From the IMG/VR virus record IMGVR_UViG_3300029504_000072: 13,090 nucleotides of DNA; one strand, given 5' to 3'. Origin of the DNA: a virus (lineage: Duplodnaviria; Heunggongvirae; Uroviricota; Caudoviricetes). Position numbers and translations under genes: made by a program. Below the pieces are notes generated by a model. It ran no database searches. It was not told the DNA's origin and worked only from the letters and a program-made list of their open reading frames with translations. Shown piece by piece: positions 1,914-8,906 of the stretch (position 1 is the stretch's first letter; each line of letters begins with the position of its first letter).

Positions 1914-3108
<1,195 letters not shown>

Positions 3109-3112: not shown

Positions 3113-3173
3113 CATTTTAAATGTTGGAATCGCAACGTAGTTATTATCATATAACAGCTTGTTTCCTGATTTA

Positions 3174-3201
3174 GCCAGCCTCCCCAAAGGCTGGTTTTTT
3201 T
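3174..3201 (+). terminator. Rho-independent terminator (plus-strand orientation)
   Basis: Stem CCAGCC (3175-3180) / GGCTGG (3189-3194), 8-nt loop, then a T-run at 3195-3201. Lies between IS5 and the blc stop. Confidence 0.55.
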
Positions 3202-3229
3202 CTAATAAGTATCATTTCGGGTGGGGATT

Positions 3230-3754
3230 TTATTGTTTAACCCATAATAGTTCATTGACATTGAATCCCAACTTTTGAGCGGTACGCACATAGTCTGCTT
3301 TTACATTATCTGGAATAGTTTGGGTCCTTGCCAGAATCCATAGGTATTCTCTGTTCGGACCACTGACAAGAGCATACTTATACTCATCATCCAGCTTGAT
3401 TACATTATAGCCACCATAGAAGGGGCCAAAAAACGAAACTTTCAACGCTGCAGTTTTAGTATCTCCAGTAAAGTATGCTTTACCTTCGCTCTCGCTCCAT
3501 TTGTTTTTCGTTGGATCGTATCCACGGTTAAGTACGCGAATCCCTCCGTCGTTCCGTTTTTCATAAGTAGCGCTGACTTGTTCCAGACCACGTTCGAACC
3601 AGTTCTCGAGGCGAGCTATTTCATACCATTTTCCGAGGTAGCGGTTGGCGTCAAAATTTGTAATCGGCTGCACACCTTTAGGTGGTGTCGGGGCCTTACA
3701 TGCTATAAGAGTGAAAGAGAGTGCAATGCCAGTCAACACAGGCCATAACTTCAT
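3230..3754 (-). CDS. blc: Outer-membrane lipoprotein, bacterial lipocalin Blc family (divergent paralog)
   Basis: 174-aa ORF with lipoprotein signal and lipobox (MKLWPVLTGIALSFTLIAC); lipocalin motifs NFDANRYLGKWYEIARL and KVSFFGPFYGGYNVI...YLWILAR; roughly half of positions match E. coli Blc as I recall it. Confidence 0.85.
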   Translation of the reverse strand: MKLWPVLTGIALSFTLIACKAPTPPKGVQPITNFDANRYLGKWYEIARLENWFERGLEQVSATYEKRNDGGIRVLNRGYDPTKNKWSESEGKAYFTGDTKTAALKVSFFGPFYGGYNVIKLDDEYKYALVSGPNREYLWILARTQTIPDNVKADYVRTAQKLGFNVNELLWVKQ

Positions 3755-3946
3755 AATAAATCCTGTACTTTTGATAGTTGAGAGTAAGTATGAAAGATAG
3801 ATGAGTACGACCGATCACTTAAAGAACTTTCCTACTATATTAGGAATAGTCAATAACAGAAAAATTGTCAGTGATGAAGCCAGAAAGGCAATTTAGTCCG
3901 TGCACTACAAAGTTTATGTGTTAATGAATTAGTCAAGGGGGAGGAA

Positions 3947-4906
3947 ATGATAAAAAAACCTGTGATTGGGATCAGCGGTTGTTTGGGCGGTTCTGCTGTT
4001 CGTTTTGATGGTGGTCACAAAAGAGATGACTTTTTAATGGACAAATTAGTGGAATGGGTAACATTCAGACCAGTATGTCCGGAAATGGCTATAGGGCTGC
4101 CAGTTCCGCGTCCTGCTCTACGACTTGTGCGCTCGAAGCAAGGAAATATACGGATGTGTTTCAGCCACGACCAGAATGAGGATGTGACAGAGAGAATGAC
4201 AGAGTTTAGTCGTTCTTATATGGACAAATTAAAGGATGTATCGGGGTTTGTGGTTTGTGCTAAATCTCCCAGCTGTGGCATGGAGCGCGTGCGTGTCTAT
4301 GATGAAAATGGTAATCGAGGTCGTAAAGATGGAGTGGGACTATTTACGAGCACTTTGATGGAAAAGTTTTCCTGGCTACCGGTTGAAGAGGATGGGCGAT
4401 TACATGATCCAGTGCTTCGTGAGAATTTTATTGAAAGAGTTTTTGCTTTGCATGAGCTCAATCATCTTTACAAGGAGAAATTATCAAGAAGAGAGTTATT
4501 AGCTTTTCATAGTCGTTATAAGCTTCAGTTGTTGGCGCATAGCCAGGCAGGCTATAAAGATATGGGACCATTTGTGGCTGCAATACACGAGTGGGCGGAC
4601 CTTGAATCATACTTTGAGGTGTATCGTGATAATCTGATGGCGATTCTCAGAAAACCAGCATCACGTAAAAATCACACGAATGTGCTGATGCATATACAGG
4701 GGTATTTTAGTAATTACTTAAGTACACGCCAGCGTAAAGAGTTGAGCGAGGTTATACTTAACTATCGCTTTGGCACATTGCCTCTTCTTGCGCCGTTGAC
4801 TCTGCTGAAGCATTATCTGGGTGAGTATCCTAATGATTACTTGCTTACACAGAATTACTTCGATCCCTATCCGGAAGAACTGGCTCTAAGACTGATGGTG
4901 AATTAA
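3947..4906 (+). CDS. DUF523/DUF1722 two-domain protein (TudS-like Fe-S domain fused to YbgA-like domain)
   Basis: 319-aa ORF; strong RBS GGGGGAGGAA before the ATG. N-terminal motifs GISGCLGG...VRFDGGHK, VCPE and SPSCG match the Cys-containing DUF523 signature; the C-terminal half resembles YbgA-type DUF1722. Confidence 0.75.
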   Translation: MIKKPVIGISGCLGGSAVRFDGGHKRDDFLMDKLVEWVTFRPVCPEMAIGLPVPRPALRLVRSKQGNIRMCFSHDQNEDVTERMTEFSRSYMDKLKDVSGFVVCAKSPSCGMERVRVYDENGNRGRKDGVGLFTSTLMEKFSWLPVEEDGRLHDPVLRENFIERVFALHELNHLYKEKLSRRELLAFHSRYKLQLLAHSQAGYKDMGPFVAAIHEWADLESYFEVYRDNLMAILRKPASRKNHTNVLMHIQGYFSNYLSTRQRKELSEVILNYRFGTLPLLAPLTLLKHYLGEYPNDYLLTQNYFDPYPEELALRLMVN

Positions 4907-5312
4907 CTGTATGCGATATCATCTGAAAGTGATGAGTTCCTGTATGCAGGATATTTACAATCGTAAAAACTACGCTATGATGCTCATAGTGTCAGTTTTT
5001 ATAAAAATCCTGTTCACGCTAAAGAAAACATTGAGATGCAATTTAATGTTGGTAAACATACCAGCCCCAAACGATTTTATTCAATCTGTTTTTATATGAA
5101 GATATTTCAAGTGAATATTAAGAGTATATAATATTATTATTGCACGCAGCTATTATAATATAACAGATTAGTTTAATGATTTGTTTTTTGTGAGTTAAAC
5201 ACATGGTTTTATAGTTGTGATGCAATGAGATTTTCCTTATTGTTGAACTGGCGAATATTGATTTTCCACCTATACTTACCTGGTGTAACCCCAATGATAT
5301 CAGGTGGATAAT

Positions 5313-6026
5313 ATGCCATACATATGTTCTATCATTTTGGTGTTGAACTCGTTTGGTGTCCGAATTGGTAAAGAAGATATTTTGTTTAAAAAAGGAAATG
5401 CTGTCCTCATTGAATACAATTTAAAAGATCTTTTTTCGTCAAATACAGATCATCTAATGATCGTAGATGTTGAGGAGAAAACAGTTAATGATTTCTTTAA
5501 AAACTACACACTCTCACCTTTTTCTGTAAGAAGGTTTTATCCGTCATACTTGATAGTAGAATGTGAAGATTTTTCATTGTTAAGGAACTTGGTTGCATGC
5601 TTGAATTGTGATAGCAAAACCGTGGATGTAGTTAGAAATCAAATATCACTTGCATGTCTTGCTGTCTTATCTTCAGAGAAAATAGTGCAAAGTTTTTTGT
5701 TCGGAAGTCTTAATAGCTTAGGTTGTAAAGTTAAGGCTATTATTCACTCGGATATCTCAGCGTCATGGAGACTTTGTGATATATCTTCAAGATTATATAT
5801 GAGCGAGAGTTTGTTAAAAAGAAAATTAAAAGACGAAGGATTATCGTTTAGTAAATTAATTCTTGAAGAACGAATGATGATGGCGCAAAGATTATTGATC
5901 TACAGTAACCATACTGTCGGCAAGGTGGCGGGAATATGCGGGTATGACAATGCATCATATTTTGTAAGTGTTTTTAGAGGATATTTTGGTGTGCCTCCGC
6001 ACCAATATTTATCAAGATTTTCTTAG
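5313..6026 (+). CDS. AraC/XylS-family transcriptional regulator, AppY-like
   Basis: C-terminal AraC HTH (LLKRKLKDEGLSFSKLILEERMMMAQRLL...KVAGICGYDNASYFVSVFRGYFGVPPHQY); N-terminus MPYICSIILVL resembles AppY-type regulators. I place the start at ATG 5313 (RBS AGGTGG at 5302-5307) rather than the track's GTG 5304. AT-rich gene and upstream region. Confidence 0.8.
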   Translation: MPYICSIILVLNSFGVRIGKEDILFKKGNAVLIEYNLKDLFSSNTDHLMIVDVEEKTVNDFFKNYTLSPFSVRRFYPSYLIVECEDFSLLRNLVACLNCDSKTVDVVRNQISLACLAVLSSEKIVQSFLFGSLNSLGCKVKAIIHSDISASWRLCDISSRLYMSESLLKRKLKDEGLSFSKLILEERMMMAQRLLIYSNHTVGKVAGICGYDNASYFVSVFRGYFGVPPHQYLSRFS

Positions 6027-6094: not shown

Positions 6095-6126
6095 ACGCCA
6101 GAATAATTGCTGGCGTTTTTCTTTTT
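6095..6126 (+). terminator. Rho-independent terminator downstream of the AraC gene, upstream of the holin (possible tR'-like)
   Basis: Perfect 7-bp stem ACGCCAG / CTGGCGT (6095-6101, 6110-6116), 8-nt loop, then TTTTCTTTTT at 6117-6126. Confidence 0.65.
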
Positions 6127-6216: not shown

Positions 6217-6432
6217 ATGAAATCCATGGATAAGTTAACAACGGGCATCGCCTACAGCACCTCTGCAGGCAGTGCTGGCTACTGGTTTTTACAGTTGCTC
6301 GATAAAGTCACACCCTCACAGTGGGCGGCAATAGGTGTATTGGGTAGTCTGGTATTTGGCATGCTGACGTATCTGACAAACCTTTATTTCAAGATTAAAG
6401 AAGACAGGCGTAAGGCTGCGAGAGGAGAGTAA
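6217..6432 (+). CDS. Class II holin (phage 21 S-type pinholin) with dual-start motif
   Basis: 71-aa product [31 protein letters not shown]...[13 protein letters not shown]; two TM segments and a charged C-terminus; Met1 and Met4 starts (antiholin/holin); RBS GGAGGTGAGG at 6205-6214. The track's 99-aa ORF from 6133 carries an N-terminal extension with no RBS. Confidence 0.85.
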
Positions 6433-8314: not shown

Positions 8315-8391
8315 TTGCTATGGTTGGTTAATCATGCGTTAATGGTGTTCTGGTTTGTTACAAAATTATCTGAAGCAGTCATTGTTATAAT
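8315..8391 (+). promoter_or_regulatory. Candidate promoter region for the cold-shock gene
   Basis: cspA-like -35 TTGCTA (8315-8320) with 17-bp spacer to -10 GTTAAT (8338-8343), preceded by an AT-rich UP-like tract; alternatively an extended -10 TGTTATAAT at 8383-8391. Either gives a long (about 95-145 nt) 5' UTR. Confidence 0.35.
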
Positions 8392-8494
8392 TTTATTATT
8401 TGTACCTCTTGAGATTTCCTTGTTGGTTTTTCTCTCTGATATTTTTTTTCGGACCATTCTGCCCAAGGGCTAACTTCTTCAAAAGGTAATAATG

Positions 8495-8707
8495 ATGTCT
8501 AACAAAATGACTGGTTTAGTGAAATGGTTTAACCCTGAAAAAGGTTTTGGTTTCATCACGCCGAAAGATGGTAGCAAAGATGTGTTTGTCCATTTCTCAG
8601 CTATTCAGAGCAACGATTTCAAAACGTTAACTGAGAATCAGGAAGTAGAATTTGGTATTGAGAACGGACCTAAAGGCCCCGCGGCTGTTCATGTTGTGGC
8701 ACTTTGA
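8495..8707 (+). CDS. cspI: CspA-family cold-shock protein (CspI-like, 70 aa)
   Basis: Cold-shock domain with RNP1/RNP2 motifs ([16 protein letters not shown]); protein [20 protein letters not shown]...; RBS AAGG at 8483-8486. Start taken at the second ATG (8495), not the track's 8492. Synteny with rz, gnsB and terminase fits the Qin cspI context. Confidence 0.9.
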
Positions 8708-8906
8708 GGTAGAAAATATTACAAACCATATTCACTTTAGATGCCCGTGTTGCCATGGTTCTCAGTATAGAACATCATCTTTTGATGTTTCTGACAGGAA
8801 TCCTTTCGGGGCAAAATGTATCTTTTGTAAATCAATGATGATTACATTTGATAATATTTCACAATACTTAAATGTTAGCCGTCTGTCGTTAGATTTAAGA
8901 AAGTGA
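8691..8906 (+). CDS. Hypothetical Zn-ribbon small protein (Ogr/Delta-like Cys spacing), overlaps the cspI 3' end
   Basis: 71-aa ORF from ATG 8691 (17-nt overlap with cspI); four-Cys motif CPCC-x21-CIFC; followed directly by a strong terminator. No good RBS, so possibly translationally coupled or not a gene. Confidence 0.3.

Follow-up and report, generated by a model that had tools for sequence, protein, structure and literature searches.

The locus described here raises three linked questions: why does a prophage carry a gene for a Blc-type lipocalin lipoprotein, where did that gene come from, and does it serve the phage or the bacterium? The gene lies in a 13,090-nucleotide stretch of DNA from the IMG/VR virus record IMGVR_UViG_3300029504_000072 (Caudoviricetes), which as a whole is called the window below. 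The reading we favor, with a probability of roughly 80%, is that the gene is a moron of lambda-like phages, that its product is a lipidated Blc-type binding protein that would benefit the lysogen, and that it was captured together with the adjacent ybgA-like gene. The gene and its signal peptide have the following positions.

3230 to 3754, minus strand: blc-like gene, an ATG-initiated open reading frame for the 174-aa precursor of a Blc-family lipocalin lipoprotein.
3698 to 3754, minus strand: lipoprotein signal peptide (codons 1 to 19) ending in the lipobox L-I-A-C, as read from the translation.

In Pfam, the 174-aa protein matched Lipocalin_2 (PF08212) over profile positions 2 to 146 of 146 with E = 7.5e-43, scoring 146.4 bits against a cut-off of 24 bits. 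In NCBIfam, it matched NF007786, 'outer membrane lipoprotein Blc', over residues 1 to 174 with 312.6 bits against a curated cut-off of 267. The protein also has the lipocalin motif GKWYEIAR (G-x-W), and its best HMMER matches among solved structures were to E. coli Blc (3mbt, E = 8e-67; also 1qwd and 2aco). Residues 20 to 174 aligned to the solved Blc chains without gaps (E ~1e-66), which points to a lipocalin fold; an AlphaFold model of low confidence (pLDDT 58) was left out of the evidence. The first-pass annotation had called the product a Blc-like lipocalin lipoprotein with a lipobox and the lipocalin signature, and had called the gene AT-rich. The profile and structure matches and the two motifs bear out the first call, and the GC comparison bears out the second: the gene has 43.8% GC (GC3 41%) as against 53.4% for K-12 blc and 46–52% for the holin, lysozyme and Rz genes of the prophage.

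The N-terminus of the protein reads MKLWPVLTGIALSFTLIAC followed by KAP, a pattern in which L-I-A-C occupies residues 16 to 19 after a hydrophobic stretch; Cys19 was invariant across the homologue alignments. The precursor would thus be lipidated at Cys19, which would become the first residue of the mature protein. The Lol '+2 rule' is the established basis for the sorting of outer-membrane lipoproteins. Residue +2 of the predicted mature protein is Lys, not Asp, and by this rule the Lol pathway would be expected to place the lipoprotein, like Blc, in the outer membrane on its periplasmic side.

The protein most readily compared with this one is E. coli Blc (b4149; 1QWD, 2ACO, 3MBT), the outer-membrane lipocalin encoded next to ampC. 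The two are of the same subfamily, have the same length and both have a lipobox, and they align without gaps with 102 of 174 residues identical (59%), or 96 of 155 (62%) in the mature part. On the other hand, the blc-like gene has no frd, ampC or gdx gene beside it, is ~10 points lower in GC and falls on a different branch of the tree. The nearest proteins from outside E. coli are closer, with 72–80% identity, and are Blc proteins of Cedecea, Scandinavium, Enterobacter, Leclercia, Buttiauxella, Klebsiella and Lelliottia.

Gene neighborhoods divide the enterobacterial Blc genes into two groups. Members of the first, which have the frd-(ampC)-blc-gdx arrangement, are 75–79% identical to K-12 Blc and 56–61% identical to the window protein. 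Members of the second, here called lineage 2, are 73–80% identical to the window protein and are transcribed divergently from a gene for a MerR/MlrA-like regulator. That regulator gene is followed either by transthyretin-like and ybgA genes or by a SnoaL-SDR-amine oxidase-DUF1365-CFA-synthase-like-DUF2878 cluster. The latter arrangement, in which blc faces the MerR/MlrA-like gene and then the SnoaL, SDR, amine oxidase, DUF1365, CFA-synthase-like and DUF2878 genes, is that of Cedecea and Scandinavium, and is a conserved cluster in Enterobacterales. Buttiauxella izardii has one blc gene of each lineage.

Protein similarity and a neighbor-joining tree both put the phage proteins outside the canonical blc lineage. 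In the tree, the phage clade (bootstrap 100) lay inside lineage 2, apart from the frd-blc-gdx lineage; bootstrap support for this placement was moderate, at 80, or 67 when Pantoea was included. The blc-like gene thus shows neither the frd-ampC-blc-gdx synteny nor the tree position of a canonical orthologue, and on sequence grounds it belongs to the separate MerR/MlrA- and ybgA-linked Blc lineage. This qualifies the first-pass view of the protein as diverged from chromosomal E. coli Blc: the divergence is real (59% identity), but the gene is not a diverged E. coli blc.

A duplicate of E. coli blc that was captured by a phage and then evolved rapidly under AT pressure might also yield a distant Blc-subfamily protein, and it is indeed in E. 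coli that this one is found. Such a history is nevertheless extremely unlikely. It does not account for the 73–80% identity to the Enterobacter, Leclercia, Buttiauxella and Cedecea proteins as against 59% to E. coli Blc, or for identities of only 56–61% to any frd-blc-gdx orthologue. The position of the phage clade in the other lineage and the linkage to ybgA, as in lineage 2, also argue against it.

The lineage-2 Blc proteins of Enterobacter, Leclercia, Buttiauxella, Huaxiibacter, Raoultella, Cedecea and Scandinavium are therefore the closest relatives of the phage protein (73–80%), and their locus has the divergent blc/ybgA orientation and the upstream motif in common with the phage version. 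The phage version differs in having no MerR/MlrA-like and transthyretin-like genes, in being 13–16 points lower in GC, and in having an araC-like gene added. The genes that accompany it in the window are as follows.

3947 to 4906, plus strand: ybgA-like gene, second gene of the insert; 319-aa product with 2-thiouracil desulfurase/DUF523 and DUF1722 domains (Pfam).
5304 to 6026, plus strand: araC-like gene, third gene of the insert; 240-aa YdeO/GadX-like regulator (Pfam HTH_18/HTH_AraC).
6217 to 6432, plus strand: class II holin gene (essD/essQ type; Pfam Phage_holin_2_1), the first lysis gene and the right boundary of the cargo region.

In intact Qin-like lambdoid prophages of E. coli genomes, the Q antiterminator gene is followed by the blc-like gene, which is read from the other strand, then by the ybgA-like and araC-like genes, and then by the genes for holin, lysozyme and Rz. 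The Q-blc-ybgA-araC-holin arrangement also occurs in two isolated phages: Jouyvirus 1H12, whose copy bears the annotation 'Lipocalin Blc', and IdasGreatGrand, the source of which was swamp mud. Among the 129 IMG/VR contigs that carry the blc-like gene, 70 of the best 80 have the three-gene insert. The mobile unit is therefore a fixed three-gene insert and not a lone gene. These placements between Q and holin, in prophages, isolated phages and viral contigs, agree with the first-pass description of the gene as prophage cargo. The remark that this is not the classical blc context also holds, as there is no ampC, sugE/gdx or frd gene within the window. The neighbors named in the first pass, IS5 and an AraC regulator gene, are both present, but the immediate neighbor, which was not mentioned, is the ybgA-like gene.

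The insert genes differ in composition. The ybgA-like gene has 43.1% GC, close to the 43.8% of the blc-like gene, and the araC-like gene has 33.6%. The araC-like product gave matches below the cut-off to the NCBIfam models of YdeO and GadX, which are acid-resistance regulators, and it may be akin to the prophage regulators PsrA, PsrB and PatE of O157:H7; there were no O157:H7 genomes among 60 spread hits. The araC-like gene was found in 922 complete genomes and has two allele classes, one at ≥99% identity in 330 genomes and one at ~89% in 567. K-12 YbgA, whose gene adjoins the photolyase gene phr, has 169 aa, corresponds to the DUF1722 part only, and is 49% identical to the ybgA-like product; since the latter has two domains, carriers gain a domain that is missing at the K-12 ybgA locus. 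Farther along the window, the region 8337–8753 matched the Rfam cspA thermoregulator (RF01766; 112 bits, E = 1e-28), and this match spans the leader and the start of the prophage cold-shock gene cspI (8492–8707).

The left side of the insert in the window departs from the arrangement in other genomes, and the departure coincides with an insertion sequence.

1914 to 3108, plus strand: IS5, 1195 bp, recognized by its transposase Pfam domains and its ends, with CTAA on both flanks.

Alignment to IS5-less genomes showed that the right side of IS5 abuts a CTAA that in those genomes lies ~35 bp downstream of the end of Q. To the left of IS5 there is no Q; this side has instead an integrase gene (90–1184) and two AT-rich ORFs (1254–1490 and 1506–1778). 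Only 17 complete E. coli genomes contained this integrase islet in its entirety; their copies occupy another chromosomal locus and are likewise followed by IS5. No complete E. coli genome covered 80% of the window. The left arm of the prophage, including Q, thus looks as if it had been replaced across IS5 by an unrelated integrase islet through rearrangement across IS5 copies, and the window prophage would then be a remnant that is without its early region at the IS5 junction. The integrase at 90–1184 was considered as the prophage's own integrase and ruled out, because the islet occurs elsewhere in other genomes and is there also beside IS5.

The closest known counterpart of the insert is the lambda-like blc moron of Jouyvirus 1H12 (gp65 'Lipocalin Blc', NC_049947). 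This is the same gene, with 96–97% protein identity, and it likewise lies between Q and the lysis genes, with the same ybgA-like and araC-like neighbors. The window differs from it in having IS5 between the position of Q and the blc-like gene, and in having the Q side swapped for the integrase islet.

To place the cargo gene in the E. coli population, we counted as carriers those among 5426 complete E. coli genomes with DNA ≥90% identical to the blc-like gene region. There were 1146 (~21%), and almost all copies were chromosomal. Parts of the surrounding window, in comparison, matched 5397 of the 5426 genomes. The gene is thus present in some and absent from other relatives, which is the distribution of a moron. 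Canonical blc was searched separately with a query taken from K-12 and was found, in its frd-ampC-blc-gdx setting, in 5425 of the 5426; a distant blastn search of these genomes with the blc-like gene did not pick it up because its DNA is too diverged. Given these two counts, carriers own two Blc genes, and the first-pass suggestion of a horizontally acquired second lipocalin copy is upheld. Beyond complete genomes, at least 1000 contigs encode the exact 174-aa protein, which is recorded as 'lipocalin family protein' and as 'outer membrane lipoprotein Blc'. A 97% identical copy lies at 984–1505 of JARKOR010000135.1; this 2.1-kb contig was assigned to 'Candidatus Nanosynbacter' but is most likely a piece of E. 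coli prophage placed in the wrong bin.

The orientation of the blc-like gene opposes late transcription, which raises the issue of how it is expressed. The following elements flank it and the insert.

3755 to 3946, strand not applicable: intergenic region of 192 bp that separates the divergently oriented blc-like and ybgA-like genes, conserved in 1H12 and IdasGreatGrand.
3829 to 3846, minus strand: palindrome TTCCTAATATAGTAGGAA, which precedes the blc-like gene, from alignment with chromosomal lineage-2 genes.
3787 to 3792, minus strand: -10-like hexamer CATACT, 33 nt 5' of the ATG, from the alignment and not detected by the consensus scan.
3173 to 3203, plus strand: intrinsic-terminator-like hairpin with a T-run, from the terminator scan, between the position of Q and the 3' end of the blc-like gene.
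6095 to 6116, plus strand: terminator-like hairpin with a T-run, from the terminator scan, between the araC-like and holin genes at the right edge of the insert.

The intergenic region presumably holds the promoters of both the blc-like and the ybgA-like gene. A sigma-70 consensus scan found no strong promoter within 3755–3946, so the promoter assignment is one that we infer. The palindrome TTCCTAATATAGTAGGAA recurs in the degenerate form CTCAATATACTACGAA at chromosomal lineage-2 blc genes and is a putative regulator-binding site. The hexamer CATACT aligns with CTACACTT of the chromosomal lineage-2 genes; CTACACTT resembles a -10 element of the sigma-S type, and CATACT may likewise be a -10 element. 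The hairpin at 3173–3203 is fully conserved in the prophages and phages and, when read on the minus strand, has no U-run after it. By analogy with lambda, it is probably a late-operon terminator of the tR' type that is read through by Q-modified polymerase. Late transcription must also pass the hairpin at 6095–6116 to reach the lysis genes. In a lysogen, transcription of the blc-like gene would start at a promoter of its own within the 192 bp that precede it, and the phage late promoter would not drive it.

How the insert was assembled can be approached through its second gene. The phage YbgA-like protein is 70–72% identical to the YbgA that adjoins lineage-2 blc in Enterobacter and its relatives. 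Because of this identity, the matching GC of the two genes, the shared upstream motif and the much lower GC of the araC-like gene, it seems likely that a phage took blc and ybgA together from a chromosomal locus in which blc faces merR, followed by ybgA with or without a transthyretin-like gene between them. The regulator gene would have been lost after capture, and the araC-like gene would have been acquired separately. The MerR and transthyretin genes were kept in none of the 80 best viral loci among the 129 IMG/VR contigs. A search for a donor of matching low GC found none, the chromosomal relatives having 51–60% GC, and synonymous sites were saturated in comparisons with all chromosomal relatives, so that the case for co-capture is one of gene order and similarity.

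The likely ligand was addressed through the binding pocket of Blc. The biochemical role of Blc itself is debated, the candidates being lysophospholipid or fatty acid on the one hand and heme or another tetrapyrrole on the other; heme sits in the same Blc cavity as vaccenic acid (PMC8177097). Taking as the pocket the 19 residues within 4 Å of heme in the Blc-heme structure (PMC8177097), we found that 18 are identical between Blc and the phage protein, with K77R as the sole change. Outside the pocket, 78 of 136 mature residues are identical (57%). As the pocket is conserved, the ligand class has presumably been kept, and the hydrophobic ligands of the phage protein would be of the kind that Blc binds, namely lysophospholipids or fatty acids, or possibly a tetrapyrrole.

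Among the phage alleles, dN/dS was 0.085 and 0.172 for the blc-like gene and 0.14–0.22 for the ybgA-like gene. The phage blc-like alleles are thus under purifying selection, and the gene is intact and selectively maintained. These values bear on whether it might be a functionless passenger in a successful prophage. One could point to the lack of an experimental phenotype, to the PHROGs family label 'unknown function', and to the many carrier prophages, that of the window included, that are defective and riddled with IS elements. A passenger, however, would not be expected to persist as an intact ORF in >1000 genomes with dN/dS of 0.09–0.17 and conserved pocket residues, in an architecture fixed in 70 of the 80 best viral contigs (of 129), or to be kept in viable isolated phages, in which genome space is limited. 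We consider passenger status very unlikely. Under the reading we favor, the lysogen would instead be better equipped to maintain its envelope lipids under stress, and this would favor retention of the prophage.

Blc-family genes have been mobilized on other occasions. Plasmid-borne E. coli blc genes, annotated as lipocalin family protein, are likewise extra copies, presumably of Citrobacter ampC-blc-sugE origin. They differ from the phage gene in being carried on plasmids and not in a prophage, and have 67–74% nucleotide identity to it over part of the gene. The temperate Morganella phage IME1369_01 also has a gene for a Blc-type lipoprotein near its lysis and packaging region. That protein is 50% identical to the window protein, lies outside both enterobacterial lineages and is encoded among different neighbors; the different branch and neighbors indicate independent acquisition. 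In the same phage (6001–6516 and 624–1406), the Blc-type gene occurs together with a gene for a lipid A lauroyl acyltransferase and a cold-shock gene. It appears that phages have repeatedly taken up envelope-lipid genes as cargo.

Independent acquisition of Blc-type genes by unrelated phages (Morganella IME1369_01 and an Acinetobacter phage) could also be taken to mean that the lipoprotein serves the phage, for instance in superinfection exclusion or receptor masking at the outer membrane, with the lipocalin fold as a scaffold and not a lipid binder. A predicted outer-membrane lipoprotein in temperate phages would suit such a role, and Cor and Llp are other lambdoid lipoprotein morons. Membrane proteins, including sie and bor, moreover predominate among lambda morons (Mathieu et al., PMC6969025). 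The pattern of conservation, with 18 of 19 pocket residues kept but only 57% of the surface, points instead to retained small-molecule binding, and the chromosomal relatives occur in non-phage contexts. None of the three insert proteins matched a PADLOC defense model. To our knowledge, no exclusion phenotype has been reported for the phage blc-like gene. A role on behalf of the phage is therefore unlikely, and benefit to the lysogen through a Blc-type binding protein remains the preferred reading.

A more ambitious proposal, which we regard as rather unlikely, is that the blc-like and ybgA-like genes form a single functional unit, with its origin in a response to photo-oxidative or lipid damage under MerR/MlrA control, and that phages have spread it as a stress-protection module. 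The periplasmic lipocalin might then handle damaged lipids, lysolipids or tetrapyrroles, paired with the DUF523/DUF1722 protein as an Fe-S enzyme. Lambdoid phages would have picked up both genes, separated them from the original regulator and disseminated them in E. coli as a mobile module that protects against envelope and oxidative stress, and the adjacent YdeO/GadX-like regulator may now control them. A parallel is the blue-light response of Vibrio cholerae, in which MerR-like regulators lie beside photolyase genes (PMC5241685). That paper on the MerR/ChrR response does not mention a lipocalin, and the parallel is one of analogy (PMC5241685). Outside the Enterobacteriaceae, a search for neighboring ybgA, MerR, CFA-like or photolyase genes showed the lipocalin gene beside ybgA in one of 46 sampled loci and beside a photolyase gene in three; linkage this rare makes an ancient functional unit less probable. 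A literature search yielded nothing useful linking lipocalin with ybgA, with DUF1365 or with LitR plus photolyase, or linking LitR with cyclopropane.

That phages carry blc is already annotated in databases and published, so the first-pass observation, although correct, was already known: 'blc, a bacterial lipocalin' is among the morons in >50% of 19 lambda-like coliphages (Mathieu et al. 2020, PMC6969025). The blc-like gene is present in ~21% of complete E. coli genomes and, in one infant cohort, in over half of the lambda-like phages; it ranks among the most frequent cargo genes of such phages in gut E. coli. What the present analysis adds is membership in a second Blc lineage, co-travel and probable co-capture with ybgA, a conserved ligand pocket and evidence of purifying selection. 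Together, the lineage, the ybgA linkage and the pocket offer a starting place for work on the function of Blc and on the reasons for its carriage by phages.
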